Source: an uncultured delta proteobacterium (GTDB taxonomy: Bacteria; Myxococcota_A; Polyangia; Polyangiales; Houyiibacteriaceae). Taken from it: a stretch of 64,000 bases of DNA. Numbering within the stretch: position 1 is the first letter of the stretch; each line of letters begins with the position of its first letter. Location of the stretch: assembly GCA_963753395.1 (NCBI GenBank), contig CAVWBW010000009.1:2633-66632 (forward strand), in the 5' to 3' direction. The notes under the pieces are model-generated. The model ran no database searches. It saw nothing but the letters and a program-made list of their open reading frames with translations, and was not told where the DNA came from. Below are positions 2,013 to 25,947 of this stretch, one piece after another. The translations under genes were made by a program, and so were the position numbers.

Positions 2013-2813
2013 CGCTGTGAGGCTTCTCTTCGGTCTTCTCGACCAATGGCGGCACTTCCCGGCGTACCAACTGGAGCGACGGGCGGACATCTTCTTTGCG
2101 CTCTACTTGCCTGGCATTGTCGAGCATGCGCTTGGGGTGAAAGTGGACTCGCGGGTGATTCCCGAGTTTCCAATTGGGAAGGAGCACAGCCGTCGGTCTA
2201 CGAAGGTCGACTATCTCGCCCTGTCTGACGACTGGTCTGCTGCGTTATAGATCGAGCTCAAGACGGAGATGCGAAGCAGAAATCGAAGGCAGGATGCTTA
2301 CCTTGCGGATGCTCGGCGTCGTGGACTCGGGGGGTTGCTGAGCGATGTACCGGTGCTTGCGGAGGCGTCGAAGGAACAGGCGAAGTATGTTCACTTGCTC
2401 TTGGCTCTAGGGGAGATGGGGCTACTTACGGTGCCCTCGGATTCGGAGATTATGCATTCCCTGAGGTGCGGCGAGGGATCACGAAGCGCATGCGGGACGT
2501 GCAGGCGGCCGCGAGCGACGCGAACGTGGAAGTTGTCTACTTGCAGCCGCAAGAGAGCATCGACGACCGTGTGATCTCGTTTGGGACCGTGGCCGAGTAT
2601 CTTGAAACGCTCGACGACCCTTTCGCGGTGCGCTTTGCGAAGCATGTGCGGGGCTGGATCAGCCTGCGGCAATACGGGCGCCCGGGACCTAGTGGCGCGC
2701 GCGGGGGGCAGGGTGCGCCGGGGATACGCTGTTCAGTCTGCCTCGGGCTCGCAGTTCACCTTCGACTCCTCCATGCGTTTACGAATACGCGAGGCCAGCT
2801 CTGCATCGCCTGA
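1993..2813 (+). pseudogene. PD-(D/E)xK-like nuclease-fold protein, disrupted by an in-frame TAG and a frameshift
   Basis: It reads MSTDSTDAVRLLFGLLDQWRHFPAYQLERRADIFFAL...STKVDYLALSDDWSAAL[TAG 2248-2250]IELKTEMRSRN... The D...ExK-like motif is split by the stop. Sense then moves to another frame around 2440-2470 (...GITKRMRDVQAAASDANVEVVYLQPQESIDDRVISFGTVAEYLETLDDPFAVRFAKHVRGW). The true 3' end is uncertain. Confidence 0.5.
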
Positions 2814-3497
2814 TGCCTCGCAGGAATGCAGGAGCCGGCCCGCCTCTTCAACGGTGAACGCGCCTAGCTCGATCGTCTGAGCCGAGGTGGCGACCAGGGA
2901 ACGGCCTCGAAAGCCGGATACCGTCGCATCGGGAACGCCCACAGCGTTGAGCAGCACGTCTGCGTAGCCTGCATAGCCGACGAGATACGCAAACAAATCC
3001 TGAAAGACGTGGCCGGCCACACTCTCGCCGTGCTGCTCGATGATGGAGCGGACCGCGTCGCGGTGGTCGGTGTCGAGGATTCGCTCTTTCGGCAGGCGTG
3101 CGGCGATGTTTCCGGCCGCGTGGCAGTCGGCGAGAACGACGCAGAGGACTTCGTGGCCTGCCATCGCGTCGTTGAAGAAGGTGTGGAGAAAGCCGGGCCA
3201 GTTGCTCGTGATGTGTTCTTTCAGGTCGGCGAGCCACGGCTGGCTGCGGTGAGCGCGCACCATGTTGGCTTTCGACACGGAAATGGCGTTGGCTCCGCTC
3301 TTTCGAAACGTCTGCTCGGCATCTGCGATGAGCCATCGGCCGTCAACGTTTCTGTCTCCGCACCAGAACAGCGCCGCGAGGATGCCGGCTTCGGCGTTGC
3401 CCTTGGTTGCCAGGGATTCGAGCTCTCGCGCCGGGAGCGGCACCTGTTCGCTGGTCGTGGTCTTTACCTCGATGCGTATGAGTTCGGGGAAGCCCAT
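2733..3497 (-). CDS. hypothetical protein (254 aa), partner of the hook ATPase
   Basis: An intact ORF starting 13 nt after the ATPase stop. The N-terminus FPELIRIEVKTTTSE contains an ExK-like element. No family was recognised. Confidence 0.7.
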   Translation of the reverse strand: MGFPELIRIEVKTTTSEQVPLPARELESLATKGNAEAGILAALFWCGDRNVDGRWLIADAEQTFRKSGANAISVSKANMVRAHRSQPWLADLKEHITSNWPGFLHTFFNDAMAGHEVLCVVLADCHAAGNIAARLPKERILDTDHRDAVRSIIEQHGESVAGHVFQDLFAYLVGYAGYADVLLNAVGVPDATVSGFRGRSLVATSAQTIELGAFTVEEAGRLLHSCEASGDAELASRIRKRMEESKVNCEPEAD

Positions 3498-3509
3498 GGA
3501 CGCGATCCG

Positions 3510-5695
3510 TTAACCTGCCACCTTGGTTTTCACAGTGGGGTTGCCATCCCACTTCTGGAGATGGTGGACGACAGCGATGTCGAAGAAGCCCTCGGACTCG
3601 AGGAAGCTAACGAAGTCCTCATCTTGTGTGGAAACCACGACCTGACGCTGCTTTGCGATCTCGGTGACGACCTTGGCCATGGCTTCTTTGCAAGGTTGGT
3701 CGAGGTTCTGGGTCGGGTCGTCTACGTAGAGCAAGTCTAGGTTGTGGGTTTTGGCGTCGGAGAACGCAAAGAAGAGGCCGATGGCTGTTGCGGTCACCTG
3801 GCCGTCTGAAAGAACCATGCGCGCTTCGCGCGCGGTGGCTTCCTTGCCACCGGGAGCTCACTTCGAACGAGTAGTCGAGCTTGTTGGCCTTGGGCTGGGT
3901 GGCGAGTGTGAGCGAGTCGAACACGGGGTGCCTGACGAGCTGCTGGTAGAGCTGATTTGCTCGCGGGCTCGCTTGGGCAAGCGTCGTGGTCGCAAGCTCG
4001 TTCTTCGCGTCGAGCAGTGCGCTCCGCAGCACGGTGAGCTTGTCGGCCGTTGCATCGAGCTCGTGCGCCGCTTCCGCGTCTTTCAGGTGCGACTTCTGGG
4101 TCTCGATCCATGCGTCTTCGAGCTTCGCAAGCTCGTCCCGCTTCTTCAGCACGGGGACGAGGCCTTCGCGAATTCGTCGCTCAGCTTCCTCGAGCTCCGA
4201 GAAGATGTGCTCCATCGCCTCCGCCCCTTTGGAGAGCTCGGCAAGTTGCTTCTCGAGCGCGCTCGTGGCTTCGGCGAGACGCGATTCGATTTTCGTCTCG
4301 GGAATCCCGGCACCGCCGAGGGCCTCGACGATGTCGGTGCGCACGGTGTTGACTGCTTCCTCTGCATCGTTGAGCGCTTTTTCGAGCTCGCCGAGCGTGG
4401 CGAGGTGGAGATCGAGCTGGCCGAGCTCGGCTTCCGCTTTGGCGACGTCTGCCTGGAGATCAGCCGCTTCGGTCGAGGTCAGCGCGGTCAATCGAGAAGT
4501 CAGCTTTGAAACGAGCGCGGCCGCGGACTCGACGGACTGCTCGCAGAGTGGACAGTGGTCCGTGGGGTTGAGATTCGAGCAAATCCTTTCCATCGGCTAG
4601 GAGCTGGCGGAGCTGCCCCGCCGCCTTCAAGGCTAGGCGCTTGTCGTCGAGCGCGCTCAGCATGGCAGCCCGTTTTGCCGCGAGGGCATCGCGGGTGCCG
4701 TGCTGTTCCACCCAATTGGCGTTGTCCTCGTGGGCCTTCGCGCGCTGCTCAAACGCGGACTGCAGGCGTGCCGCTAGGGACTGATGTTGAGCTATCGACG
4801 TCGTGATTGGCGTGAGCCGCTTCTGCAGCGCTGAATCGGTTCGGATGCTCCGTACGCCGGCCGTTACCTGCTCGGCAACTCCTGGGGCGAGGGCCACTGC
4901 GGTGCACTCGGAAATCAGGGCGACCTCGACTTCGTACTTGCTGGCGAGGCGCTGGAGCCGCTCTCCGACTCCGGCGTAGGCCTTCTTGAGGCCGGCGCTG
5001 CTGAAATCTTTACTGACGAACTTGCGCTCTCTTGCGGCGGTCTCCGCGTCCTTCTTCTGCTGTGCGAGAAGCTCCTCCCGGGCTGCGTGATTCCTCTCGT
5101 CCTCGACGATTTGTGATCGACGCGCCTCGGCTTGCTTTGTGAAGTCTCTGGGCTTGAGTCTCGACAGGATGGCTTCGATATCGTCCATGCCGAGGAGCCG
5201 ATCGAGGGCTGCGTTTCGATCTTTGGGTGAATCGAGGAGGAGCCCGCGGATGCGGCTTTGTTGGAGAAGGACGGTGCGGACGAAGCCGGCCATGTCGAGC
5301 CCGAGGATGCGGTCGCGTTGTTGTTCCGCTTCGTCGCCCTCGTAGGTGTTGCCGTCAAGCTCCAGGGTGAAGCTCTTGGAACCGTGGTCGCGTGTGAGGA
5401 TGAGGGTTTGTTTGCCGGACTCGAGGGTCACCCTCCCAAACCAAGCCGCGCTCTTCGCGCTCACCGGCGCGAGGAAGGCTTTGAAACCGGTGTTCGACAA
5501 GACCTCGGAAGGGAACTTGCCGTAGAGGGTCCACTGGATGCTCTGCGCGACGGTGGACTTGCCGACACCGTTGTCTCCGTGGAGCAGGCCGGGCTTCGTC
5601 GAGAAGTCGTATTTGATATCGGTCGCGACGCCGCGGAAGCTTCGGATCTCGACTGAGTGGAGGCGCCAGCGAGCCGCTTCGATTGAATCGCTCAT
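3510..5695 (-). pseudogene. Rad50/SbcC/SMC-like ATPase with a CxxC hook, two frame breaks
   Basis: Walker A is GDNGVGKST and the Q-loop is LLQQ. Long coiled-coil stretches flank a central HCPLCEQ hook. The signature is LSDGQ, Walker B is LLYVDDP and the H-loop-like element is VVVSTQD. Sense is spread over three ORF-track frames (4460..5797, 3619..4593, 3510..3818), with breaks near 4560-4587 and 3845-3858. Confidence 0.75.
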
Positions 5696-5700
5696 TCGGC

Positions 5701-5868
5701 TCACTCCTGATCTGCGGTGCGATTTATGAGCTCGGCCAGCACTGCGTCTACGCCGGCTCCGCCGTCTTTCTGGTAGGCGCTCCAGAGCTTCTTCCATAGC
5801 GGAAGTACATCTTCGCCACCCTTCTGCTCCTTGAGCTGCCTCACGACAGCTTCGTTGATCCCTTCCAT
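5701..5868 (-). CDS. small acidic helical protein (55 aa)
   Basis: The hand translation is MEGINEAVVRQLKEQKGGEDVLPLWKKLWSAYQKDGGAGVDAVLAELINRTADQE*. A GGAGGAG motif precedes the ATG. It ends 5 nt before the ATPase start and is below the ORF-track length cutoff. Confidence 0.4.
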   Translation of the reverse strand: MEGINEAVVRQLKEQKGGEDVLPLWKKLWSAYQKDGGAGVDAVLAELINRTADQE

Positions 5869-5928
5869 CAACTACTCCTCCGGTTCGTCCGTTTTCCTAA
5901 GGTGGGGTCTTTGTCGTTTCGACTAGGC

Positions 5929-6141
5929 TCATTGGGCTCCCGGGCTCGCGCAAATCCAATGGCAGTTGAGGCTGATGTCGCTCTCGCAGATGCAGATTGG
6001 GTGTTTGCCTGGTTCGCAGATGGGTTTGACGTCGATGCAGCGGGAGCTGGTTGGGGTGGGTTCAGTTGTTGGAGTCGGTGCGGTGCCCGCGAATATGGCC
6101 GCGGCGGCGACTAAGAAACCTGCCCGAACTGAGTTGCGCAT
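5929..6141 (-). CDS. secreted Cys-rich peptide (knottin-like 6-Cys spacing)
   Basis: A signal peptide (MRNSVRAGFLVAAAAIFAGTA) is followed by a PT-rich linker and then C-x6-C-x7-C-x-C-x7-C-x3-C. A GGAGG motif lies 6 nt upstream of the ATG. Confidence 0.5.
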   Translation of the reverse strand: MRNSVRAGFLVAAAAIFAGTAPTPTTEPTPTSSRCIDVKPICEPGKHPICICESDISLNCHWICASPGAQ

Positions 6142-6235: not shown

Positions 6236-6463
6236 ATGAGCGGCACGGCCATCATCGTTCTCATCGTCGCGGGGCTGATTGCGCTCTTCGTGGGGAGCCT
6301 GGTGGCAGGGGTTACGGTGTTGTTGCCGGGTGCGACCTTGCTTGCGGCGGTCATCATCGGGAGCATGGCGGGCGGCTGGGTTGGGGGGATTGCGGGGTTC
6401 TTCGTTTGGATGGCGTTCTTCTTTGGCGGCACGATTGTGATGGCGTTGAGCGACGACGAGTAG
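6236..6463 (+). CDS. small Gly-rich membrane protein
   Basis: It reads MSGTAIIVLIVAGLIALFVGSLVAGVTVLLPGATLLAAVIIGSMAGGWVGGIAGFFVWMAFFFGGTIVMAL, hydrophobic throughout. Confidence 0.5.
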   Translation: MSGTAIIVLIVAGLIALFVGSLVAGVTVLLPGATLLAAVIIGSMAGGWVGGIAGFFVWMAFFFGGTIVMALSDDE

Positions 6464-6474
6464 GCGATGCAGAG

Positions 6475-6501
6475 GTGCCAGTCGGTTTCGATGTCGGTGA
6501 G
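6475..6501 (-). repeat. R2: shortest helicase-relic copy (LTDIETDWH core only)
   Basis: gtgccagtcggtttcgatgtcggtgag is identical to the core of R1 and R6. Confidence 0.6.
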
Positions 6502-6507
6502 CTGGCG

Positions 6508-6813
6508 CTACGCCGCGCGCGGGTCGTTCTCGGGGGATTCGATGCTCAACCGAAGACCCAGGGCTTCGACAATCAGGCCGAGGCTCGACAGGCGGGGGTT
6601 TCCGTTTTCGGAGAGGGTTCGGTAGAGGGTTTCGCGGTTGAGGCCGGTGGCTTCGGCGAGGTGGGCCATGCCGCCTTGGGCGTCGACGACGTCGCGGAGA
6701 CCGATGAGGAAGACTTCGTCGCCTTCTTCGAGGCAGGCGGTGAGGTAGTGGGCGGCCTCGATTGGGTCCTGCAGACGGGGGAGGAGGAGGTCACGATAGG
6801 GGACGGTTGGCAT
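6508..6813 (-). CDS. higA: addiction-module antidote protein, HigA-type HTH
   Basis: It reads MPTVPYRDLLLPRLQDPIEAAHYLTACLEEGDEVFLIGLRDVVDAQGGMAHLAEATGLNRETLYRTLSENGNPRLSSLGLIVEALGLRL. It overlaps the toxin gene by 23 nt. Confidence 0.85.
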   Translation of the reverse strand: MPTVPYRDLLLPRLQDPIEAAHYLTACLEEGDEVFLIGLRDVVDAQGGMAHLAEATGLNRETLYRTLSENGNPRLSSLGLIVEALGLRLSIESPENDPRAA

Positions 6814-7135
6814 CTTTATGCGCCCTCCAGTAGCGCTTGGCTCGCGCGATGTCGCGCGGCTGCGTCTGTTTGTCGCCGGCACAGAGGAGAAGGAGCACTG
6901 CCCTTCCCTGCCGTGCGAAGTAAATCCGATAGCCGGGACCGTGGTGAACCCGGAGCTCGTGCACACCTTCGCCGATTGGCTTGGCGTCGCCGAAGTTGCC
7001 GTCGCGAAGACGCGCAATGCGAGCTCGAATCCGTGCGCGGGCGCGAACGTCCCTCTGGGCCAGCAACCAATCGTTGAACGGGGTGCGACCGTCGGGCGTC
7101 CGGTAGACGCGGACTTCGATCTCGGGCGATGTCAT
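6791..7135 (-). CDS. higB: addiction-module killer protein, RelE/HigB-type toxin
   Basis: It reads MTSPEIEVRVYRTPDGRTPFNDWLLAQRDVRARARIRARIARLRDGNFGDAKPIGEGVHELRVHHGPGYRIYFARQGRAVLLLLCAGDKQTQPRDIARAKRYW, the pattern of this toxin family. Confidence 0.85.
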   Translation of the reverse strand: MTSPEIEVRVYRTPDGRTPFNDWLLAQRDVRARARIRARIARLRDGNFGDAKPIGEGVHELRVHHGPGYRIYFARQGRAVLLLLCAGDKQTQPRDIARAKRYWRAHKDANRPLS

Positions 7136-7235
7136 GCGTGTTGGGCATGTAGCTTATAGGCTACATCGAGTAGTCGGCCGGATCAAGCGCTCGCAGCCGG
7201 AGTACGGGTGTTGTCGACCGCTCGCAGCGGCAGTT

Positions 7236-7300
7236 GCGCGCGCGCGCGACATGCCCACGTAGGCTGCGCCTCGGTGCCAGTCGGCTTCGATGTCGGTGAG
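7236..7300 (-). repeat. R3: helicase-relic copy (LTDIEADWHRGAAYVGMSRARA)
   Basis: It matches the R1/R4/R6 core at nt level and includes an alternating GC run. Confidence 0.75.
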
Positions 7301-7414
7301 GCGGCCTTTCGCTTGCGCCGTGGGGAGGGGCTTGACGGGCTTTTGGTGGCGAGGCCTGGATCCGGTAGCTTGAAGACTGAGTGATGCGGTACTTCGTGGG
7401 GATTTTGGCTGGGC

Positions 7415-8079: not shown

Positions 8080-8174
8080 TCGTGAATGATGACGTGCAGC
8101 CGCGTGCGCGCGCGGCATGCCCACGTAGGCCACGCCTCGGTGCCAGTTGGTTTCGATGTCGGTGAGGGCGGCGG
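8080..8174 (-). repeat. R4: helicase-relic copy (LTDIETNWHRGVAYVGM..R.RLHVIIHE)
   Basis: It matches the other copies at nt level and has an internal indel relative to R1. Confidence 0.75.
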
Positions 8175-8643: not shown

Positions 8644-8717
8644 GAGCAACTTCGGGCGGGGGTGGTCGATGACCCAGCATGCGTGGAGGGTTTGCCGTGG
8701 GCGCGGAAAGCAAGTAT

Positions 8718-8951
8718 ATGGCAGATATGGCAAACCGGACGACGGTGGTGTTGACCGATGAGGATGAGCAGGCGCTTCGGGAGGCGAGCCGGCGTGAGGG
8801 GGTGTCGCAGTCGGAGCTGATTCGGCGGGGGGTTCGGATGGTGACGGCGGCGTATCGGCGGCGTGGGGGGCCGTCTGTTGGGTGGCTGACGTTGAGTCGG
8901 GCGGAGCGGAAGGCGCTGCAGGCCGATGAGTTTGGGGACTTCGACGGGTGA
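8718..8951 (+). CDS. vapB: ribbon-helix-helix (CopG/VapB-type) antitoxin
   Basis: It reads MADMANRTTVVLTDEDEQALREASRREGVSQSELIRRGVRMV. Its stop overlaps the GTG start of the PIN gene (GTGA). Confidence 0.8.
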   Translation: MADMANRTTVVLTDEDEQALREASRREGVSQSELIRRGVRMVTAAYRRRGGPSVGWLTLSRAERKALQADEFGDFDG

Positions 8952-9370
8952 AACAGTTGAGTGGGGGGCCGCTGATCTTGGATACCGGGGGGTGGCTCTA
9001 CGCGCTCGGGGGGGACGAGGCGTACGCGAGCGCATTGCGGGATGCGCGGCCTGCCATCGTGCCGTCGCTCGTGCTTGCTGAAGTCGATTGGCACTTGCGG
9101 AGGCGGCGGGAGGACATGGGGCGGCTGCTCAAGGAAGTGTCGCAGGGGGCCTATGCGTATGAGCCGATGACGTTCGATGATGTGGAGCGGGCGGCACAGG
9201 TGGATCGGAAGTTTGCGGACTTGGGGCTCGGGATTGTGGATGCGTCGATTGTGGCGTTGGCGGAGCGCTTGGATGTGCGGCGGATCTTGACGATTGACCG
9301 GGACTTCTCGGTGGTGCGGATGGGGAAGCGGTGGCGGAAGGCGTTTGAGCTGGTGGTGCCGCTTGGGTAG
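8948..9370 (+). CDS. vapC: PIN-domain toxin (VapC-type)
   Basis: It has LILDTGGWLYAL, ...VLAEVDW and ...LGIVDASIVALAERL..RRILTIDRDF, consistent with the conserved acidic PIN residues. Confidence 0.85.
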   Translation: MKQLSGGPLILDTGGWLYALGGDEAYASALRDARPAIVPSLVLAEVDWHLRRRREDMGRLLKEVSQGAYAYEPMTFDDVERAAQVDRKFADLGLGIVDASIVALAERLDVRRILTIDRDFSVVRMGKRWRKAFELVVPLG

Positions 9371-9910: not shown

Positions 9911-10077
9911 GCTTCGGGGCTCGGCGAAGTGGGCGCGCGGCCTGTTGATGTCTCGAGCTTGTGCACAACTTCTGAGGGCGATGGTCGATGAAAGGGTACG
10001 CGGAGCGCGGCCCCGACGCCCCACCAAGCCCAACCCCCGCTGATTGACTTCGTTCACCCAACAGGTGTACGCTCTCA

Positions 10078-10360
10078 ATGATCCGTCGGGTGGAAATCAC
10101 CAGGCGGGCGGAGAAGCAGGTGCGGTAGGCTCCCCGCGCATGTCGGCGAGAAGCGATTGCACTGGGTCTACTTCGTGAGGGAGATAGGCTTGGAGGAAGT
10201 TCGGAAGATTCCTGGGTTTCACGACGAGCCGCTGGTTGGTAAGCGGCGAGGCATGCGGAGCATTCGGTTGAGCCGCGGATACCGAGCGATGTACCGGCTC
10301 GTGCGTGAGGGGGACGTCGATGTCGTCTTCATCGAGGAGGTCAGCAAGCATGGCTACTAG
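10078..10360 (+). pseudogene. RelE/HigB-like toxin, frameshifted near 10120-10128
   Basis: MIRRVEITRRAEKQV is in one frame. RLPAHVGEKRLHWVYFVREIGLEEVRKIPGFHDEPLVGKRRGMRSIRLSRGYRAMYRLVREGDVDVVFIEEVSKHGY* is in the +1 frame. It is a paralog of the toxin at 12133. Confidence 0.6.
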
Positions 10361-10697
10361 GCGACGCAAGAAACGGCAGCACCCTGCTCGGTCGAAAGGC
10401 TCAGTGGATGCGTACGAGCTTCTCGAGAGCCTCTACGGACCCGTGACCCTCGGCGGCATGCTCTGGAGCCTCCGGGCGTGTGATGAAATCAGCCAGGCGG
10501 CATTCGCGGAGACGCTGGGCGTCAGCCGCTCGCATCTGTGCGATGTCGAGAAGGGGCGGAAGGTGGTGAGCCCGGAGCGGGCGGCCGCTTGGGCGAAGGT
10601 TCTTGGCTTCCCGCCAACGGTGTTCGTGAAGCTGGCGCTTCAGGAGCAGTTGGACCGGGCCGGGGTGAAGATGAATGTTGAAGTGGAGGCGGCGTGA
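10350..10697 (+). CDS. XRE-family HTH antitoxin
   Basis: MATRRRKKRQ... is followed by an HTH (ISQAAFAETLGVSRSHLCDVEKGRKVVSPERAAAWAKVLG). It overlaps the end of the toxin gene. Confidence 0.75.
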   Translation: MATRRRKKRQHPARSKGSVDAYELLESLYGPVTLGGMLWSLRACDEISQAAFAETLGVSRSHLCDVEKGRKVVSPERAAAWAKVLGFPPTVFVKLALQEQLDRAGVKMNVEVEAA

Positions 10698-10770
10698 CTA
10701 TGACCCACCTCGACCCGACGCTTTTCGTCACCGCCTTCAATGCCTGGGACCGCTACGACCATTCGCGCCA

Positions 10771-11835
10771 TCACCCGTCGATTGCGTAGAACTCGCGTGC
10801 GTTCTCGGCGAAGAACTTCGCCTTGTCTGCGTCGGTCCGCGTCGACAAGAGCGCGTCGAGGCCCGAGACGAGCGTGGCGTAGTCGATCGACACTTTGTCC
10901 ATCGGGAAGTTCGATTCGAACATGCACCGGTCGATTCCGATCGTCCCAATCGCCCATTCGATCAGCGGGCCAACGCGGTCGACGAACTCTTGTTCGCTCA
11001 TGGGCTGGTCCCGGTGCTCGGCGCCAAATCCGACGATCGGCATCAATAGCCCCCCGACCTTGAAGCGCACGTGAGGAATGCTCGCGAAGTTGGCGATCGC
11101 CTCTTTCCATTCGTTGGCGATGCGGACGCGTTCCGCGGGATTGCCGCCGAGCCCGCCGTAAGGGCCGGCGAGCGCGATCGGCGTTGCCAAGTGGCAGAGC
11201 ACCACCTTCGTTTCCGGTTGGGAGCGAACGAGGTCGCCGAACTCGTCGAGCTGATGGTGGTACATCCAGGCGTCGAAGCTAAGACCACGCTTGCCGAGGA
11301 GCGCGTAGCCTTCGCGCCATGCGGGGTTTCGAATGAGGCCTGGTTCGCGCGCGAAGTCGACGATGGCTTCGTTCGGGTGGGCCGCGAGCATGTCCCGAAC
11401 TCCACGGAAGCGTGTGCTCGCGCGCTGGTGTGCATCGAGCACGTCACCGAGATCCGGGGCCTCGAGATGGGCTGCACCGACGATGGCGCGGATCGTCGTT
11501 CCCGCGGGGTCGATGCTTTCGAGCCAACGGGTCTCGTCGACGAGGTCGATGTGCTGCTTGCCCTTCCAGCCCGCTTGAACGTGGACAATCCCTCGAAGCC
11601 GATCCCGGTAGCGCCCCCAATCGCTGGGCAAATCGCTCGGCAGATAGTGGTTCAGCGCGTACTCGCCGCGCCCGACGAAATCGACGAGAGGCTTCGGCAT
11701 GGCGTGGCGAACGACGAAGTCGAGCAAGCGCGGGCTCCAGCCAAAAAGCTTGACCGCGACGCTGGCTTCTCGCGGAGTGGTGCGCGGGTCCCATTGGTGA
11801 ACGTGCGAATCGACGATGGCAGGTGCGAGACTCAT
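10771..11835 (-). CDS. amidohydrolase-family protein
   Basis: It starts MSLAPAIVDSHVHQWD (an HxH metal motif) and is an intact 354-aa ORF. The track ORF extends further upstream through helicase-relic sequence and is not credible there. Confidence 0.9.
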   Translation of the reverse strand: MSLAPAIVDSHVHQWDPRTTPREASVAVKLFGWSPRLLDFVVRHAMPKPLVDFVGRGEYALNHYLPSDLPSDWGRYRDRLRGIVHVQAGWKGKQHIDLVDETRWLESIDPAGTTIRAIVGAAHLEAPDLGDVLDAHQRASTRFRGVRDMLAAHPNEAIVDFAREPGLIRNPAWREGYALLGKRGLSFDAWMYHHQLDEFGDLVRSQPETKVVLCHLATPIALAGPYGGLGGNPAERVRIANEWKEAIANFASIPHVRFKVGGLLMPIVGFGAEHRDQPMSEQEFVDRVGPLIEWAIGTIGIDRCMFESNFPMDKVSIDYATLVSGLDALLSTRTDADKAKFFAENAREFYAIDG

Positions 11836-11854
11836 GGGGGCTGACTCTAGACGA
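11711..11854 (-). repeat. segmental duplication copy A (amidohydrolase start plus about 20 nt upstream)
   Basis: Near-identical to 13432..13575, apart from a few substitutions and a 1-nt indel close to the ATG. Confidence 0.85.
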
Positions 11855-11883
11855 AATGCTGGCGTTTTGGGTTGTGAATGATG

Positions 11884-12036
11884 AGGTGCAGGCGCGTGTG
11901 GGGGCGCGACGTGCCTCCGCAGGTCACGCCGCGGCGCGGGTCGGTTTCGATCTCGGTGAGGGCGGCGAGGATGGCGACGTCGTTTTCTAGGCCCTTGAGG
12001 CCGGAGACGATGGGCCAGGTGATGATTCGTGAGCAA
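11884..12036 (-). repeat. R5: helicase-relic copy (ITWPIVSGLKGLENDVAILAALTEIETDPRRGV...LHLIIH)
   Basis: It matches R1, R6 and R7 at nt level and extends further 5' in gene sense than R1-R4. Confidence 0.8.
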
Positions 12037-12132
12037 GTGCTGGGGTCAGTGGTCGATGACGGGGTGTGAGGACGGTTTGCAACTGCCCAAGGTCGATCTT
12101 TGATATTAAATTTGGTATAGGGTGAATTGGTT

Positions 12133-12417
12133 ATGTGGCGGGTTGTCGAGGCGACTGGCATCGGGAGGCAACTCGGGCGCGCACCGAAGCAGGTGCAGGA
12201 GAAGTATGAGTTTTGGAGAAGCGTGGCGGAGCTCGATGGGCCGATGGGGCTTCAGCGGTTGCCGGGGTTTCGGGACCATGCGCTCAAGGGTGAGTGGAGG
12301 GGCGCGCGGTCGTCCGCACTATCCCGTCAGTGGCGGGTCATCTATGTGGTTGTCGGCGACGAGCTGACTGTGTTCGTGCTGGAGGTGAATCCTCATGACT
12401 ACCGGAAGAAAGACTAA
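12133..12417 (+). CDS. RelE/HigB-like toxin
   Basis: It reads MWRVVEATGIGRQLGRAPKQVQEKYEFWRSVAELDGPMGLQRLPGFRDHALKGEWRGARSSALSRQWRVIYVVVGDELTVFVLEVNPHDY. Confidence 0.8.
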   Translation: MWRVVEATGIGRQLGRAPKQVQEKYEFWRSVAELDGPMGLQRLPGFRDHALKGEWRGARSSALSRQWRVIYVVVGDELTVFVLEVNPHDYRKKD

Positions 12418-12688
12418 GGCGGCGCTCAAAGGGCGGTTCTCGCCAGCAAAGGTGCGGCGGCGGCTGTCGGTTGGGCAGTCCGTGCGCATCGCGCGAGAGC
12501 TCAATCAGCTCAGTCAGAACGAGCTTGCTCGGCTGACTCGGATTGCGCAGTCGACGATTTCGGCGATTGAGACGGACCGGGTGAAGCTCGGTGCGGAACG
12601 GGCGAAGACGCTCGCGCGGGCGCTCAAGGTGCATCCGGCGGTGCTGCTGTTTCCGGGCTGGCGAACGGAGGACGAGAGCGCGGCGTAG
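12395..12688 (+). CDS. XRE-family HTH antitoxin
   Basis: It contains SVRIARELNQLSQNELARLTRIAQSTISAIETDRVKLGAERAKTLARAL and overlaps the toxin gene by 23 nt. Confidence 0.85.
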   Translation: MTTGRKTKAALKGRFSPAKVRRRLSVGQSVRIARELNQLSQNELARLTRIAQSTISAIETDRVKLGAERAKTLARALKVHPAVLLFPGWRTEDESAA

Positions 12689-12695
12689 GGGCGTC

Positions 12696-12840
12696 GATGA
12701 GGCCTGCAGCCGTGTGTGCGCGCGACATGCCCACGTAGGCTCCGCCTCGGTGCCAGTCGGTTTCGATCTCGGTGAGGGCGGTGGGGATGACGACGTCGTT
12801 TTCTAGGCACTTCAAGCCGGAGGCGGTGGACCAGGTGATG
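12696..12840 (-). repeat. R6: helicase-relic copy (ITWSTASGLKCLENDVVIPTALTEIETDWHRGGAYVGMSRA...)
   Basis: It matches R1 and R5 at nt level. Similarity may continue to about 12900. Confidence 0.8.
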
Positions 12841-12899
12841 GTGTTTCTCTTCGTCGGCGCGCCGGGCTTTGAGGAGCAGGGCGGAGATCCGGCGCCTGG

Positions 12900-13331
12900 T
12901 CAGGCTTCGAGCATGTGCTTGATGTTCTCCATCGAGCTCTCGACGTTTCGCTGGTTTTGCTTCGAGATCAGGTGCTCGGCGAGCTTGCCGACAACCGGAA
13001 TCGGAATGGAGTACTGGACCTTCATCGTGAGCTTGGTGCCGCCTCCCTCTGGCTCGACGTCTGCAGCCCAGGTGCTCGACACCCCGCCCTGGCTTTCGGT
13101 GACCGTTCGGCGGTTGGGCACGTGCTCGATGGTCGTGCTCTGTCCTTTGAGCGGGATGCCCACCATCTTGAACGTCCAATGAAAGTGCCGGCCGACTCCG
13201 GGAGGGCCTTCCACCTCGGAGACCTCCATCATGCCTATCATCCATTCGGGGTCATTGAGTGGGTTGTCGATGTACTCGAATACCTTCTCAGCGGGTGCAT
13301 TGATGATGATGCTGTTCTCGATAGTTTCCAT
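12900..13331 (-). CDS. SRPBCC-superfamily (polyketide cyclase/START-like) protein
   Basis: It reads METIENSIIINAPAEKVFEYIDNPLNDPEWMIGMMEV...KLTMKVQYSIPIPVVGKLAEHLISKQNQRNVESSMENIKHMLE. GGAGG lies upstream of the ATG. Confidence 0.85.
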   Translation of the reverse strand: METIENSIIINAPAEKVFEYIDNPLNDPEWMIGMMEVSEVEGPPGVGRHFHWTFKMVGIPLKGQSTTIEHVPNRRTVTESQGGVSSTWAADVEPEGGGTKLTMKVQYSIPIPVVGKLAEHLISKQNQRNVESSMENIKHMLEA

Positions 13332-20256: not shown

Positions 20257-21732
20257 CTAGCCGGCGCGGGAAGCCAGGGTTTGGAGAAAACGTAGCAACT
20301 CGACCATCACGGCTGTGTCGTGCTCGCAATAGGTGCGGAGCTGGGTTCTGAGATCCTCGCACTGGTCGTCGCTCAGCTCATCGGGGTGGCACAAGACGCT
20401 CTCCAAGAGATTCGAGGCGGCCATGCCGTCGGCGACGTCGAGCTCGTCGTAGCTCATCTCCGGGAGGAGCGCCGGGACGACGTTCTTGATGCTGAAGCTT
20501 CCGCGGAAGTCCGGGTGGTAGAAGTGGTTCTTGACTGCGACGAGTAGGTCTTGCGTTTTGTCGCGCGCTTCGAGCAGGGCGGCCGCGTGCTCGGGGGCGG
20601 CTTCAGCGAGCTCGGTGAGGCAGCGCTTTTCGACGCTGGCGTGCCAGGCGAGGATGGTGGCGGCGCCGTGCAAGGCCTCGACGACCGCTTGTGCGACGGC
20701 GGGTTGGGGGTCGCCCTGCCCTTCTGCGAGGTATGCGCTGTGGGTGAGCTCGCCGTTTTCGTGGAGGGTGTGGACGCTGAACTGCACGGGGACTGCGGTG
20801 AGCGGGCTGCAGCCGTTCCAGACGGGCAAGGCTGGGCCGACGGTTTCGAAGTCGAGCATGGCGATGGGGTAGCGGTAGGCGGCGAGGACTCCCTGCAGGC
20901 CTGGTTCGATGACGACCTTGTTCGCGACGACGGCGGCGCGGTGGCGCGCTTGTAAGGGCTTGAGCGGGAAGTCGCTTGGGATTTCCGGGATGGTTTCGAT
21001 GCCTCGTTCGCGGAGCTCCGCGAGGGCGCGGGCGCGGATGCCGTTGAGCTCTTCGATGGCGTGGTCGGGTGCGGGCGCGTGGCAGCGGGCGAGGAAGGGG
21101 CACTCGTAGGGGGATGTGCAGTGGGGGCCGGGGGCGACGTCGGGGAGCTCGCCGCTGAGCATGCGGATTTGGGCGGCGGCGTTTTCGGCAATGTCGTCGC
21201 GGAGCTCGGCGACCTCGGCGCTGATGTCGGCTCGGGTGAAGAGCGGGCCTTGGTCGGGGTGGCGGTGCTCGCCGTTGAGGTGCATGAGCTCGACGCGGGT
21301 GACCGGGAGGCCTGCGCGCTCGACGACGTGGGTTTGGACGGCGGCGTCGGCGAAGTGCTGCGGCTTGACGGACTTGGTGGCTTTGACTTCGGTGAGAACC
21401 CAGCCGTCGGGCTCTTTGCTGAGGGCGTCGACGGCGACGAAGATGTTGTCTTCGAAGAAGGAGGCTTCGAGGATGGCGGTGGCGCCTTCTTCGATTGCAA
21501 GGCGGGTGGCTTCGACGGCGTGGTGGGGGCGCCGATAGTCGAGCTCGATGAGTGTGGCGCCGGGGAACTCGTGGCGGGCGCGCTCGCCTACGCGGTTGCC
21601 CATGTCGAAGAGGGCTTGGAGGGAGGCGTCGGGCGTGAGCTCGGGGGCGCGGGGCTCGTGCGTTTTCCACCAGAGGAGGCGGTGGCATTGGAGGCCGGCG
21701 GTGTACTTCGATTTGGAGAGGCGTGGGGGCAC
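20257..21732 (-). CDS. DUF2779-like protein: Cas4/RecB-like PD-(D/E)xK plus a DnaQ-like exonuclease half
   Basis: The N-terminus is LSKSKYTAGLQCHRLLWW. A Cys trio (HCTSPYECPFLARC) gives a 4-Cys cluster pattern. EVK and MLDFET (DxE) motifs are present. It starts 10 nt after the sbcC stop. Confidence 0.75.
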   Translation of the reverse strand: MPPRLSKSKYTAGLQCHRLLWWKTHEPRAPELTPDASLQALFDMGNRVGERARHEFPGATLIELDYRRPHHAVEATRLAIEEGATAILEASFFEDNIFVAVDALSKEPDGWVLTEVKATKSVKPQHFADAAVQTHVVERAGLPVTRVELMHLNGEHRHPDQGPLFTRADISAEVAELRDDIAENAAAQIRMLSGELPDVAPGPHCTSPYECPFLARCHAPAPDHAIEELNGIRARALAELRERGIETIPEIPSDFPLKPLQARHRAAVVANKVVIEPGLQGVLAAYRYPIAMLDFETVGPALPVWNGCSPLTAVPVQFSVHTLHENGELTHSAYLAEGQGDPQPAVAQAVVEALHGAATILAWHASVEKRCLTELAEAAPEHAAALLEARDKTQDLLVAVKNHFYHPDFRGSFSIKNVVPALLPEMSYDELDVADGMAASNLLESVLCHPDELSDDQCEDLRTQLRTYCEHDTAVMVELLRFLQTLASRAG

Positions 21733-21742
21733 AATGGGAAGC

Positions 21743-24700
21743 CTACGGCAAAACGAACTTGGCGCTGCTGCCGGCTTTGCCTGCGGTGACTTGGAGGCGG
21801 ACGTCGATTCTCTCTTTCAAGTCGGCGACGTGAGAGATGACGCCTACGAGGCGGCCGCTTTGTTGGAGGTCGATGAGGGTGTTGATGGCGAGGTCGAGGG
21901 CTTCTGGGTCAAGGCTGCCGAAGCCTTCGTCGACGAAGACGGTGTCGAGGCGCACGCCGCCGGTGTGGGATTGGACGGTGTCGGCGAGGCCGAGTGCCAG
22001 AGCGAGGGCGGCTTGGAAGCTTTCGCCGCCCGAGAGTGAGGAGACGTGGCGGGTCTTGCCGGTGTAGGCGTCTTCGACTTCGAGGTCGAGGCCGCCGGCG
22101 TGACGGGCGTCCTTCTGGTCGCTCGCGCGGAGCAAGCGGTAGCGGCCTTTGCTCATTCGGTGGAGCCGCTCGCTCGCGGAGATGAGAACGTCGTCGAGGA
22201 GCGCGGCCAGGACGAAGCGTTGGAAGCTCATCTTCTTGGCGTTCCTGCCCTGGGCCACGTTGGCGAGGTCGCCCACGACGCCGTAGCTGGCCTCGGCGGC
22301 GTCGAGACCCTCGTCGCGTTCGGCGAGCTTCTTCTTCAAGGCGTCGATGGACTTGAGCTCCTGCTTGGCGCTGAGCAGGGCGGCCTCCGACTCTTCGCGC
22401 GCCGCCTTCGCGTGCTGGTGTGCCTCCCTGAGCGAAGTGAGCTCCGGGCGCTGGAGCTCCTTGGTGTGTTCCTGCGCCTGACGAAGGAGTGTGGCGGCCT
22501 CGCTGCGCGCGGTGTCGAACTGGGTGACCTCGACTTTGAGAGCCTTGCGGGCGGGCTCCTGCAGGCGGGCCTCGAGGAAGGACTCCTCCGATTCGAAGGC
22601 GGCGTCGGCGAGGCGGCGCTTCCACTCCGCCGCTTGCTGCTCGTGTTTGCGGAGCGCTCCGGCGAGGGTGGTCTTCCTGCTCGTGTCTTCCGAGCTGGCT
22701 GCTGCGTGAGCGGCCACGGCCTTTTCGTAGGCGCTTCCGGCCTCGTCGAGCTCGGTTTGGAGCGCGGTGATTTGGGTGTTGAGAGCGCCGATTGCGGCGT
22801 CTAGCGCGCCTGCTTCGCGGTACGCCTCCGGAACGGCGTTCTCTGCTTGCTCTAGGCGGCCGTTGGCTGCGTTGAGCTCCGCCTCGGCGGTTCGCAACTC
22901 GGTGGAGGCGGCGTTGAGCTTCTGTTCGGCTTCTTTGAGCTTGGCGACGAGCGCATTGAGCGACGCTTTGAGCTTCGTCGCCTGCTCGGCGCGCTGCTCT
23001 TCGTTCGTCTTTTCCTGCTTCACTTCGGACAAGGCCGATTCGAGCTCGCTTAGCGGCCGGTCGGCTGCGTCTTCGAGGGTTCGACGGAGGTTGGTCTCGG
23101 CCTCCGTTTGGACGGCCAGCTCGGTTTGCGCGTCTGAGTAGTGCTTCTGCGCCTCGTCGCGGGCCGTTTCCGACGCCTTGGTGGCCGCTGCGGCATCGTC
23201 GACGTGCTGGTCCGTGGGAATTTCGTGCGCGGATGCTGCGGGCGCGGGGTGTTCGAGAGAGCCGCACACCGGGCAGGGCTCGCCGTCTTCGAGCTTGGTC
23301 GCCAAGACCGACGCTTGGCCGGCGAGGCGCGTGCGCTCCAACTCGCCCAAGGTGACGCGCGCGGTGGACAGCGCTTGCTCGGCTGCCTCTAGCTTCGCCT
23401 TCCAAGCAGCCAGCAACGACTCTCCGGCCTGCTTTTTCTTGCCGACCGAATCGAGCTCCGTACGGGCGTCGAGCCGTGTCTCCAGGGCTTGGATGCGCGT
23501 GCCAATGCCTTCGAGGTCTTTGGCGAGCGCGATGTTCGCGTCGTACTGATGTTTCGTCTCGGTCTCGCCTCTTCGGAGCTTGTCGAGCTGGGCCTCGGAC
23601 TTGTCGACGGCCCCGCGCTTCTCTTCCTCGCGCTCTTTGGCCGTTGCCACCCCCTGACGGGCATTGCCTAATGCGTCGAGTTTTTCGCGATGGCTTTCGA
23701 GCTTGGTGCGCTCCGACTCGAGACGCTTTCGCTCGGGCTCCGCGGCCTTCGCGGCGTCGTGGCGCGCCTTGGCGGTTTGTAGCGCAGTCGTTGCCTTTGT
23801 TAGGGCCTCTGCGGCTTCGTGGTGTCGTGTCTGTGCATCGGCGGCCTCTTTTGCGAGCGTCGACGAGTGCTTGTGGAGGTCTTCGAGGCCGGCGGCTCGC
23901 GTCGCGGCTTCGAGCTCCGTTCGCTTCTCCTCGATGGACGGAGCCTTTGCGTCGAGGCCTTCGAGTGCGCCCTTGTGCGTTTCGAGGGCATTGAACTTCG
24001 CCTCGACCTCCTCGGCCTTCGCCAAGATCGCGTGAGCTGCGGTTTCGTCGGCCTTGAGCTTTTTGAGCTTGGGTTCGAGCTCGGTCATCGCCTTCTGCTG
24101 ATTGGCGTGCAGGGAGTCGAGCTCCTCGCGTGTCTCGCAGTCTTTTGTGCCGAGCAAGGTTTGCTCGTCGCGCTGAAGCGCTTGGATCTGCTTTTTGAGC
24201 TCGGCCGCCCGACTCTTCAGCGCGTCCTCGATGCGGCGGAACATGCGGGTGTCGAAGAGTGCGGACAGGATTTCCTCTCGCTCTTGGGACTTCGCGAGGA
24301 GGAGCTGACGGAACTTCCCTTGGGGGAGCATGATGACCTGGCGGAACTGGTCGCCTCGGAAACCGAGGATCTTGGCGACCTCGGTGGCGACGTCTTTGTT
24401 CTTGGCCGCGAGCAAGTCGCGCTCGGCGCCGTCTTCGTCGATGGTCCAGAGCGTTGCGGAGGGCTGGGTGACGGTGGTGCCCTCCCCGCGTTGCTTGGGT
24501 CGCTCTTGCCTCGGTGTGCGGGAGACGCGGTAGCGCTTCTCGCCGACGCGGAAGTCCAAGGTGACGCGGGTTTCGAGCGTGGGCTCGGCCAAGTCGGAGC
24601 GGAAGCCTTCGCCGTCGCGGTCGTCGCCCGAGGACTCGCCGTAAAGTGCGAAGCTGATGGCGTCGAGCAGGGTGGTCTTGCCGCCGCCGGTCGGACCGTG

Positions 24701-24799
24701 AATCAAGAACAAGTGATTGTCGCCGAGCTCATCGAAGTTGAGCGTCTGGCAGCCGGCGTAGGGGCCGAAGGCTTCCAAGGTGAGCGTGATGGGCCTCAT
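21743..24799 (-). CDS. sbcC: exonuclease SbcC (Rad50-like ATPase)
   Basis: It starts MRPITLTLEAFGPY. Walker A is GPTGGGKTT, the hook is PCPVCGSLEHP, the signature is LSGGESF and Walker B is VFVDEGFGSLD. Its start overlaps the sbcD stop (ATGA). The upstream part of the track ORF is an R/P-rich artefact. Confidence 0.95.
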   Translation of the reverse strand: MRPITLTLEAFGPYAGCQTLNFDELGDNHLFLIHGPTGGGKTTLLDAISFALYGESSGDDRDGEGFRSDLAEPTLETRVTLDFRVGEKRYRVSRTPRQERPKQRGEGTTVTQPSATLWTIDEDGAERDLLAAKNKDVATEVAKILGFRGDQFRQVIMLPQGKFRQLLLAKSQEREEILSALFDTRMFRRIEDALKSRAAELKKQIQALQRDEQTLLGTKDCETREELDSLHANQQKAMTELEPKLKKLKADETAAHAILAKAEEVEAKFNALETHKGALEGLDAKAPSIEEKRTELEAATRAAGLEDLHKHSSTLAKEAADAQTRHHEAAEALTKATTALQTAKARHDAAKAAEPERKRLESERTKLESHREKLDALGNARQGVATAKEREEEKRGAVDKSEAQLDKLRRGETETKHQYDANIALAKDLEGIGTRIQALETRLDARTELDSVGKKKQAGESLLAAWKAKLEAAEQALSTARVTLGELERTRLAGQASVLATKLEDGEPCPVCGSLEHPAPAASAHEIPTDQHVDDAAAATKASETARDEAQKHYSDAQTELAVQTEAETNLRRTLEDAADRPLSELESALSEVKQEKTNEEQRAEQATKLKASLNALVAKLKEAEQKLNAASTELRTAEAELNAANGRLEQAENAVPEAYREAGALDAAIGALNTQITALQTELDEAGSAYEKAVAAHAAASSEDTSRKTTLAGALRKHEQQAAEWKRRLADAAFESEESFLEARLQEPARKALKVEVTQFDTARSEAATLLRQAQEHTKELQRPELTSLREAHQHAKAAREESEAALLSAKQELKSIDALKKKLAERDEGLDAAEASYGVVGDLANVAQGRNAKKMSFQRFVLAALLDDVLISASERLHRMSKGRYRLLRASDQKDARHAGGLDLEVEDAYTGKTRHVSSLSGGESFQAALALALGLADTVQSHTGGVRLDTVFVDEGFGSLDPEALDLAINTLIDLQQSGRLVGVISHVADLKERIDVRLQVTAGKAGSSAKFVLP

Positions 24800-25947
24800 G
24801 CGCCGCCCTCGCCCTTGGCTTGGAGAAGCGCGGCGACGACTTCGTTGAACAGCTCTTCGCCGCCGTCGATGAGCTCGTTGCCGGTGACCTCTTGGTAGAA
24901 GTCCTTGTAGAGGTCGACCTCGGAGCGCTTGAGGTGGTCGCCGCCTTTGAGCTCGGCGGACTGGCCGGATTGAAGGCCGGGGCGTTCGAGGTGCAGGACG
25001 TTGGGATACACCTGGCGGAGCTTGCCGATGGCGTCGAGGATGGCCTTCCGGTCGGTGAGGCGAAGCAGCAAGTAGTCGTCCCTGGGCGCGCCGTCGGTGG
25101 GGCCTTTCAGCAGCTCGTCGAGCTCGCCTTCGATGACGCGGACGTCGCGGCGCGGCGAGAGCTCGATGCGTTCGGTGTCGACGCTGCCGTCCGGGCCGAC
25201 CTCGACGAGGGTGACGGACTTGCGGTGGTCGACCTCGGAGAAGGAGTACTTGAGAAGCGAGCCCGAGTAGTGGATGCCGTCGCCGACTTGTTGGGGGCGG
25301 TGGAGGTGGCCGAGGGCTGTGTAGTGGAAGCCATCGAAGCAATGGGCGCCGACCTCGCCGGTGCCGCCGACGGTGAGCGGGCGCTCTGATTCGGACTCCT
25401 TGCCTCCGGTGACCCAGCAGTGGCCGATGGCGACGGAGCGCGACTTCGGGGGGAGCTTGGCTCGGAGCTCGGAGACGAGCGCGAGGACGGACGCCTCGTG
25501 GCCATGGAGCGAGTCGTCGGCCAAGTGGAGGCGCACCGCGGCGGGGTCGGCGTAGGGAACCGGGCAGAAATGCACAGCTCCGTGCGCGTCGGACAGGACT
25601 ACCGGGTCGACGGCGGAGCTCAGCGGCCCGTAGACGTGGAAGCCGCCGGCGGTGAGCAGGCGGTTGCCGAAGCCGAGACGCTCGGGGCTGTCGTGGTTGC
25701 CGGCAATCATGATGACCGGGATTTCAGCGCCGAGGACGAGACGCTCGAGGACCTCGTTCAGGAGGCTGACTGCGGGCGCGGGGGGCACGGCTCGGTCGTA
25801 AACGTCGCCGGCGATGACGACGGCGTCGACGGCTCGTTCTTTCGCGAGGGAGACGAACTGGTCGAGGACGTGGGCTTGGTCTTCGAGGAGTGAGACGTTG
25901 TGGAACTGGCGGCCGAGGTGCCAATCGGCGGTGTGGAGGAATCTCAT
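24796..25947 (-). CDS. sbcD: exonuclease SbcD (Mre11-like phosphoesterase)
   Basis: It has MRFLHTADWHLG, GDVYD and GNHD motifs. Confidence 0.95.
   Translation of the reverse strand: MRFLHTADWHLGRQFHNVSLLEDQAHVLDQFVSLAKERAVDAVVIAGDVYDRAVPPAPAVSLLNEVLERLVLGAEIPVIMIAGNHDSPERLGFGNRLLTAGGFHVYGPLSSAVDPVVLSDAHGAVHFCPVPYADPAAVRLHLADDSLHGHEASVLALVSELRAKLPPKSRSVAIGHCWVTGGKESESERPLTVGGTGEVGAHCFDGFHYTALGHLHRPQQVGDGIHYSGSLLKYSFSEVDHRKSVTLVEVGPDGSVDTERIELSPRRDVRVIEGELDELLKGPTDGAPRDDYLLLRLTDRKAILDAIGKLRQVYPNVLHLERPGLQSGQSAELKGGDHLKRSEVDLYKDFYQEVTGNELIDGGEELFNEVVAALLQAKGEGGA

Follow-up and report, generated by a model that had tools for sequence, protein, structure and literature searches.

A three-gene module of a zinc-hook ATPase, a predicted Hjc-like nuclease and a small protein, with a probably inactivated copy in an uncultured delta proteobacterium

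This study concerns three adjoining genes in a 64,000-nt stretch of DNA from an uncultured delta proteobacterium of the Houyiibacteriaceae (GenBank assembly GCA_963753395.1, contig CAVWBW010000009.1, positions 2,633 to 66,632 of the forward strand). The whole stretch is called the window here, and all positions are counted from its first letter. On the minus strand, from 5868 to 2733, a 55-aa open reading frame (ORF), an ATPase gene and a 254-aa ORF are closely packed in that order of transcription. An earlier note, made from the letters alone, had reported three tightly spaced minus-strand ORFs separated by 5 and 12 nt, and these coordinates stood, the spacers being 5696–5700 and 3498–3509. 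The leading gene (5701..5868) is intact, begins with ATG at 5868 and stops at 5701–5703, and would encode 56 aa if the TTG at 5871 were used. The middle gene (3510..5695) encodes a zinc-hook ABC ATPase that is Rad50/SbcC-like and related to LmuB of the Lamassu defence system; it is read across three successive frames in this copy and thus contains two frame breaks. The third gene (2733..3497), also intact, encodes the partner, which we predict to be a circularly permuted Hjc-like nuclease of the PD-(D/E)xK type that has a helical insert and two paired C-terminal helices. We refer to the set as the trio.

The two frame breaks were located with a metagenome contig (L002) that is 95.6% identical over 3 kb, has an uninterrupted ATPase gene and served as the blastn reference. 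Each break corresponds to one extra base on the minus strand, an A at 4574–4575 (GAATC vs GATC in L002) and a C at 3852–3854 (CTCCCGG vs CTCCGG in L002), and both fall inside the ranges where they had been suspected (near 4560–4587 and 3845–3858). Deleting one base at each site gives an ATPase of 727 aa, compared with the approximately 728 aa previously estimated, that is 94% identical, gap-free, to the intact homologue P0001. Database matches of the ATPase family reach E = 0 at equal length, and those of the partner family go down to 1e-156. Programmed frameshifting was ruled out because close and distant relatives read through both sites without interruption. An Rfam scan of the window returned no RNA element, and a promoter/terminator scan gave scores at background level only.

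All the motifs that had been listed for the ATPase are present, and their conservation was followed across 32 homologues. Invariant residues are G40, N42, G43, G45, K46, S47 and T48 of the Walker A motif GDNGVGKST (5552–5578), Q146 of the Q-loop (5243–5269), C381, P382 and C384 of the zinc-hook motif HCPLCEQ (CPxC, 4537–4557) at the coiled-coil apex, L628, S629, D630, G631 and Q632 of the ABC signature LSDGQ (3798–3812), and D658 and D659 of the Walker B motif LLYVDDP (3714–3734), which is of the hhhhDD and not the DE type. The D-loop is likewise invariant. The H-loop region, VVVSTQD (3621–3641; all on the minus strand), aligns to ITHD of T. maritima Rad50 and has a Gln replacing the usual His; Gln occupies this position in 27 of the 32 homologues and His in the other five.

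Library searches with the ATPase gave above-threshold Pfam matches to SMC_N and AAA_23 and an SbcC-like match in PHROGs (E 1.5e-27), and NCBIfam scored it at 50 bits for Rad50 and 28 bits for SbcC, with the cut-offs of 450–700 bits unreached. The best PADLOC model was LmuB PDLC03859 (E 2.4e-40, 137 bits), matched by residues 9–699 over model positions 2–593 of 611. When the family profile was compared with PDB sequences, Rad50 and Smc3 were matched, with Rad50 3qf7 at the top (1.7e-15), and the LmuB chains, which are of the short type, were absent at E <= 1e-3. The AlphaFold2 (AF2) model (pLDDT 84.7) shows a bipartite ABC head and two helical arms of ~190 residues each that meet at residues 376–390, where the CPxC motif forms a loop between helices 335–375 and 391–459; the protein ends directly after the C-terminal head, with no extra domain. 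The best Foldseek match of this model was Rad50 7zr1 of C. thermophilum (E 1.6e-19), and Salmonella LmuB came seventh, among generic SMC matches (E 2e-12). A single CxxC and an hhhhDD Walker B are marks of the “long” LmuB proteins, whereas SbcC and Rad50 have DE (PMC12663957). Both marks occur in the 32 homologues and also in the ATPases of two distant trio loci, L012 and L013, which are 24–26% identical to the window family and nevertheless retain the DD Walker B and, near residue 380, CPVC; LmuB PDLC03859 was the best model for these as well (E 3.9e-44 and 1.3e-30). Judged from its motifs, the ATPase appears to be a Rad50/SbcC derivative of intermediate length that shares derived motifs with long LmuB.

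The window also encodes a canonical SbcCD pair, ~19 kb from the trio, with intact sbcD at 24796–25947 and intact sbcC at ~21743–24800, both on the minus strand. This SbcC has a CPVC hook, a DE Walker B (VFVDEGF) and an H-loop His (ISH), and its coiled coil is ~300 residues longer than that of the trio ATPase. The proposal that the trio contains a second, non-housekeeping Rad50/SbcC-like hook ATPase is thus borne out. It had also been called partnerless, which is right as far as Mre11/SbcD is concerned, as no such phosphoesterase gene adjoins the ATPase in any of the 17 trio loci, the window included, and wrong otherwise, for the 254-aa protein is its partner.

The 254-aa protein gave no match above noise in Pfam, NCBIfam, PADLOC or PHROGs, in line with the description of it as a protein of no recognisable family. 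That description no longer holds at the level of structure and of distant homology, where an Hjc-like fold is indicated. An AF2 model built from 45 homologues had a pLDDT of 91.8, and its top five Foldseek matches were archaeal Hjc chains (probability 0.72–0.99, E 0.09–0.22), the best being 2wcw (probability 0.99, E 0.09); the alignments span ~77–88 columns, about half of Hjc. Nuclease chains of SPARDA (DREN) were also among the top matches. Sub-threshold Pfam Hjc matches occur in 6 of the 45 family members (best E 0.0074), and the PF01870 gathering score (21.1 bits) was reached by none of them. Hjc enzymes are Holliday-junction resolvases that act as dimers. The trio nuclease keeps the D...ExK catalytic residues of this family and differs from it in the permuted order of its segments, a helical insertion of ~100 residues, a C-terminal helical pair and the constant coupling of its gene to a hook ATPase.

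The order of the conserved segments is what sets this nuclease apart. The catalytic ExK strand, E10-V-K12 (3462–3470, minus strand), lies at the extreme N-terminus within IRxEVK, with E10 and K12 at least 90% conserved in the 45 homologues; the IRIEVK sequence had previously been noted as ExK-like, and it is this strand. The “PD” catalytic strand, GVPD (P189-D190; 2928–2939, minus strand), lies near the C-terminus, with G187 and P189 invariant and D190 at least 90% conserved, and is preceded by the helix FQDLFAYL (2982–3005, minus strand), in which Q166 is invariant. The conserved C-terminal set therefore comprises Q166, G177-Y178 and G187-x-P189-D190 (QDLFAYL...GY..V..N.VGVPD).

Natural homologues with the canonical order were found when the nuclease profile was searched exhaustively against 1.84 billion representatives. 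Proteins of 150–190 aa (P0172, P0178, P0185 and others) match the profile with the segments swapped: their own residues ~16–61 match profile positions 149–195, and their own ~70–170 match ~9–125, with domain E-values in P0172 of 2.3e-10 and 8.9e-10 for the two segments. These proteins read ...GRVMQKLLA..GY.V..NAVGVPD...(10 aa)...VEVKT...REL..., so that the PD segment of the window nuclease aligns to their N-terminal GRVMQ.LLA...GY.V..NAVGVPD and its ExK strand to their vEvKt strand. They have weak Pfam matches to Hjc and VRR_NUC; the best Hjc match of P0172 has E 0.013 and lies below the gathering score. An in silico re-ordering of the window family to the canonical order (alignment A3) matched nothing in Pfam or among PDB sequences, and the permutation is shown here by the natural canonical-order homologues in place of that artificial re-ordering. 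Taken together, the model and these relatives indicate that the 254-aa partner is a circularly permuted Hjc-like PD-(D/E)xK nuclease, with the ExK strand first and the helix-strand-PD unit ~180 residues later. P0172 is encoded in the same kind of trio, the products of which are, in gene order, 81 aa, 731 aa (an SMC_N ATPase) and 175 aa (the nuclease) long, as is P0179 of a second and more distant permuted group (65, 735 and 246 aa). Since both nuclease orders sit in the same trio, together with ATPases that in these two loci are only 24–26% identical to the window family, the trio appears to be old and diverse and the permutation to have arisen inside it. The window nuclease retains all catalytic residues and has a dN/dS of 0.08 against L002, a sign of strong purifying selection.

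The small leading protein is predicted to be helical around a conserved core that reads LW..LW.aY..GG. The acidic C-terminal tail of the window protein recurs in most loci, but L012 has a basic one. It matched no family in Pfam, PADLOC, NCBIfam or PHROGs. Its homologues lie directly upstream of the ATPase gene in every locus for which upstream DNA was available. In P0058 (798 aa, found in four contigs), the small protein (residues 1–58; A4 profile E 6.7e-14) is naturally fused in frame to the N-terminus of the ATPase, which suggests that the two act together and implies a physical interaction between the small protein and the hook ATPase. Its position directly upstream of the ATPase mirrors those of LmuC and of the SbcD tail (PMC12663957), by analogy only. 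Homology to the C-terminal Rad50-binding segment of SbcD was considered and rejected, as hhalign against the window SbcD gave a probability of 0.4%.

A further 16 loci, from Myxococcota, Elusimicrobia, Planctomycetia and metagenomes, contain the same three genes in the same order, so the search for intact homologous cassettes that had been proposed for this locus succeeded, and the trio is conserved as a unit. The loci compared were L001–L010, L012–L014 and two JGI contigs, the latter as gene listings. The nuclease gene directly follows the ATPase gene in every locus read, the preceding gene encodes 55–80 aa, and the junctions are short or overlap by 4–8 nt (L001, L012, L013); ATPase identity to the window family ranges from 94% down to 24%. 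In a database of 5.8 billion proteins, the ATPases form ~60 clusters, nearly all of 720–740 aa, and the relatives of the 254-aa protein ~65 clusters, nearly all of 235–255 aa. The two sets often share a contig or genome, as in Sorangium, Polyangium aurulentum, Anaeromyxobacteraceae and Elusimicrobia. One of the intact loci is Polyangium aurulentum CP079217, 3,357,307–3,379,502. An all-vs-all comparison of neighbouring ORFs from 15 loci revealed no further family common to at least three of them, and the trio thus appears to be a self-contained module in variable surroundings. The candidates for a fourth conserved gene were an AAA+ gene downstream in L001 and an AddAB-like pair in two loci, neither of which is kept across loci.

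The neighbourhoods of the trio bear on the question of whether it lies in defence islands. Defence-type neighbours are present in several loci and include BrxC/BrxD, a Cas3-like helicase, WYL regulators, NOV_C and a PLD protein with a DEAD helicase, as well as SNIPE, NERD, SNF2 and SLFN-like helicases. In the window, toxin-antitoxin-like pairs add to this defence-like context. PADLOC recognised no defence system beside the window trio. In the two JGI contigs (samples 3300041966 and 3300047160), the trio divergently adjoins the AddAB-like pair (UvrD-helicase/PDDEXK_1 and PDDEXK_1). This adjacency could hint at a link to double-strand-break processing or could be mere shared synteny.

The copy in the window is most likely an inactivated remnant within a decaying patch of accessory genes, because its ATPase gene carries two single-base insertions, and we consider it probable that this inactivation is real and recent. 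The convergent neighbour gene at 1993–2692 on the plus strand is a pseudogene of a widespread ~233-aa family with a D...IELK motif: compared with an intact, 90%-identical homologue in L015, it has a CTG->TAG change at 2248–2250 and 1-nt deletions near 2443 and 2661. Full-length Pfam domains were found in the ten other window ORFs that were checked, and neither sbcC nor sbcD is damaged. Real decay is favoured because the adjoining gene is a pseudogene while the other genes checked are intact, and any inactivation would be recent because the repaired ATPase still shows purifying selection (dN/dS 0.23). An independent remnant was found in L011 (9400–10970), where only the last ~75 codons of the ATPase gene remain, next to a nuclease gene that is intact, with a PIN-like gene upstream. 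A member of the 1993–2692 gene family was also seen ~2 kb from the trio in L001.

The main competing account of these lesions, to which we assign a minor but appreciable likelihood, is that the cassette is functional and that errors of assembly or consensus, arising from long-read data or from a region of low coverage or mixed strains, account for the extra bases and for the lesions of the neighbouring gene. Both breaks are indeed single-base insertions in short homopolymers (AA and CCC), both partner genes are intact, the repaired gene is still under purifying selection, and frame-split ATPase genes also occur at ~10000–12900 in two relatives from nanopore-derived metagenome-assembled genomes, L008 (“ont.bin”) and L009 (MFD), the nuclease gene of L009 being frame-split as well. 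The frameshifts in these nanopore relatives weigh against a reading of the window copy as inactivated. However, the runs involved are only 2–3 nt long, five lesions are clustered within 3.8 kb (the ATPase gene and gene 1993–2692), one of them, CTG->TAG, is a nonsense codon made by a double substitution and not a typical indel error, and the other window genes checked, including a sbcC of roughly 1020 codons, are intact with full-length domains.

What the trio does can be approached through its context and its relatives. The best explanation overall, which we hold to be somewhat more likely than not, is a conserved module of a hook ATPase, an Hjc-like nuclease and a small protein that is probably directed against foreign DNA and whose window copy has most likely been inactivated recently. 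By analogy, its biological role is most likely defence against phage or plasmid DNA. Defence is favoured because of the patchy distribution of the trio, its variable flanks, the coexisting intact sbcCD, the defence-type neighbours and the repeated decay. A more specific and more tentative version, for which the chances are slightly short of even, is that the trio represents a new family of SbcCD-derived immune or DNA-surveillance systems parallel to Lamassu, with the permuted Hjc-like nuclease in the slot of Mre11 or LmuA and the ~55-aa protein in that of LmuC or the SbcD tail. Several observations weigh against an anti-foreign-DNA module of this kind. The defence role is argued from context and analogy; no relatives of the trio were found in plasmid, phage or viral-contig (IMG/VR) collections, so carriage by mobile elements is unsupported; the absence of a PADLOC-recognised system beside the window trio points the same way; the Foldseek E-values for the nuclease fold are weak (0.09); and a repair role fits the two loci with an adjoining AddAB-like pair equally well.

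If the trio acts as a DNA-sensing nuclease, the ATPase would dimerise through its zinc hook, and, like Rad50/SbcC and LmuB, it would recognise DNA ends or DNA of unusual structure, or clamp onto them, upon binding ATP. Because its Walker B is DD and its H-loop His is replaced by Gln, hydrolysis is probably slow, and the ATPase probably serves as a DNA clamp or switch that depends on ATP. The small protein may bind the ATPase head or the base of the coiled coil as an adaptor or regulator, and the nuclease may dock through its helical insert (residues 76–174) and its C-terminal helices (216–247). The nuclease could be held inactive and then be released and oligomerised when foreign DNA or a DNA end is sensed, as has been shown for LmuA of Lamassu, or it could be directed onto ATPase-bound DNA for cutting, as in SbcCD.

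One close comparison is with SbcCD and Mre11-Rad50. As in those complexes, the gene for a zinc-hook coiled-coil ABC ATPase with the hook at the coiled-coil apex lies beside a nuclease gene, and the small gene directly upstream of the ATPase occupies the place where the C-terminal Rad50-binding segment of SbcD is encoded. In contrast to SbcCD, the trio nuclease is of the unrelated PD-(D/E)xK fold and is encoded downstream of the ATPase, and the ATPase has neither the DE Walker B nor the H-loop His that the window SbcC carries. It is conceivable, although we think it improbable, that the trio is a housekeeping-type repair paralogue, an SbcCD-like complex in which an Hjc-like resolvase replaces Mre11 and which acts on hairpins, stalled forks or four-way junctions. 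Rad50 is the nearest solved structure and sequence family of the ATPase, Hjc enzymes resolve junctions, and an AddAB-like helicase-nuclease pair is divergently adjacent in two loci. Nevertheless, a repair paralogue is hard to reconcile with a patchy taxonomy (~60 ATPase clusters among 5.8 billion proteins), with flanks that vary and of which none is conserved, with the coexistence of an intact canonical sbcCD and with the loss or decay of the trio in the window and in L011. Moreover, the best model match of the ATPase is the defence ATPase LmuB, and its DD Walker B and its Gln H-loop point to a switch and not to a processive repair motor.

The other close comparison is with Lamassu. Lamassu systems are defined by LmuB, an LmuA effector with an ABC-3C C-terminal docking domain (CTD) and usually an LmuC middle component (MC), and their operons are ordered effector, middle component, ATPase (PMC10586767, PMC11707656). 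The trio resembles them in its three components, that is, an SMC/Rad50-like ABC ATPase, a small accessory protein and a nuclease effector, and in occurring alongside canonical SbcCD. Its ATPase is of the LmuB type with a moderate score, as a relative rather than a core member, and at 727 aa it lies between the short (about 600) and long (about 800) LmuB proteins. The likeness ends with the ATPase. Neither the partner, its 44 homologues nor the canonical-order relatives matched a PADLOC LmuA model or a Pfam CTD such as PF20283 at E <= 1, and LmuA was absent from the PDB profile search of the partner at E <= 10; the trio nuclease thus has no recognisable ABC-3C docking domain. The small protein (55–80 aa) and its 13 homologues matched no PADLOC LmuC and no Pfam MC such as PF20131 at E <= 1. 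The gene order is small protein, ATPase, nuclease in the window and the 16 other loci, and PMC12663957 does not name Hjc-like nucleases as an LmuA effector type. That the trio is a divergent LmuACB Lamassu with re-ordered genes, within reach of up-to-date DefenseFinder profiles, is the least probable of the readings considered: it has in its favour the full-length PADLOC LmuB model as best ATPase match for each of the three trio clades, the single CxxC and hhhhDD of long LmuB (PMC12663957) and an overall logic of ATPase, small protein and nuclease effector (PMC10586767), but has to contend with a nuclease of a type outside the named effectors, with partners that fail every LmuA, LmuC, CTD and MC model even at E <= 1, with a gene order other than effector, middle component, ATPase, with LmuB scores of 105–150 bits on a 611-position model that indicate a relative and not a member, and with a PDB profile search that found Rad50 and missed the short LmuB chains at E <= 1e-3.

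Systems with other nucleases are further removed. Septu PtuAB, PARIS AriAB and Gabija also encode an ABC-type ATPase sensor with a nuclease effector, and the PADLOC PtuA and AriA models gave weak matches to the ATPase, confined to the N-terminal P-loop region (PtuA E 1e-4 to 1e-6). However, they combine ATPases that have no long zinc-hook coiled coil with nucleases of the HNH or TOPRIM type, and they lack a small leading gene. Septu itself was set aside, as PtuA models matched only the P-loop and no HNH gene is present at the trio, and so was RloC, as the trio ATPase carries no anticodon-nuclease or other extra domain after its C-terminal head. The earlier note had held that the cassette fits none of Lamassu, RloC or Septu. 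For the 254-aa and small proteins and for the gene order this is supported, these proteins being without a match in PADLOC, Pfam (including the ABC-3C CTD and MC families), NCBIfam or PHROGs; it does not extend to the ATPase, whose best PADLOC model is LmuB PDLC03859 and which bears the marks of long LmuB. We therefore set the trio apart from Lamassu because its partner and small protein match no LmuA or LmuC model and its gene order differs, and we read it from its sequences as a Lamassu- and SbcCD-related but distinct, apparently undescribed DNA-sensing nuclease module that is a demonstrated member of neither. No paper describing the trio was found in the literature, and mention of it in the ABC-3C classification of Krishnan et al. 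(2020) or in the supplementary tables of PMC12663957 is possible.

From a broader perspective, Rad50/SbcC-like ATPases are known to have been repurposed from DNA repair to immunity, for example in Lamassu. The trio would be another compact repurposing, with other partners and another gene order, and if this is true, there was at least one more event in which the zinc-hook ATPase became coupled to an unrelated nuclease. The trio would then also serve as a minimal model, made of three small genes, for the control of a nuclease by Rad50-like sensors, and offers a natural comparison of which hook-ATPase features serve DNA sensing and nuclease licensing. In addition, it provides a clear case, at the level of sequence, of a PD-(D/E)xK nuclease that occurs in a single gene context, the trio, in both the canonical and the circularly permuted arrangement, and it is a candidate family for defence-system catalogues, which would now flag just an orphan “LmuB”. 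The copy in this genome is probably dead and lies next to another dead gene. New here are the affinity of the ATPase to LmuB, the assignment of the partner as a predicted permuted Hjc-like nuclease, the breadth of the trio family and the decaying patch around this copy.

Other features of the window were observed in passing. The sbcCD genes are followed by a 491-aa ORF (region 20257–25947, minus strand) that resembles DUF2779 by eye, and in L013 the gene directly after the trio is a DUF2779 gene. The region just upstream of the cassette contains two toxin-antitoxin-like pairs, at 6508–7135 (minus strand) and 8679–9370 (plus strand); one is a Gp49/HigB-like toxin with an HI1420-type antidote, and the other, assigned by reading the sequence only, is a small RHH-like (ribbon-helix-helix) ORF overlapping a PIN-like ORF. 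A dispersed direct repeat of 72–122 nt is present in five copies in the first 12 kb (365–436, 6431–6502, 7230–7301, 8096–8167 and 11890–11961, with longer copies at 352–473 and 11877–11998), which are 63–89% identical to the reference copy. It had no Rfam match, gives rise to recurring TDIE.DWHRG.A.VGMSRA pseudo-peptides in ORF lists and may be a REP/MITE-like element. Directly upstream of the cassette, a 70-aa ORF (5929–6141, minus strand) has a hydrophobic N-terminus and a Cys-rich C-terminus, and its C-terminal part (IDVKPIC.PGKHPIC) can also be read at the start of L002.

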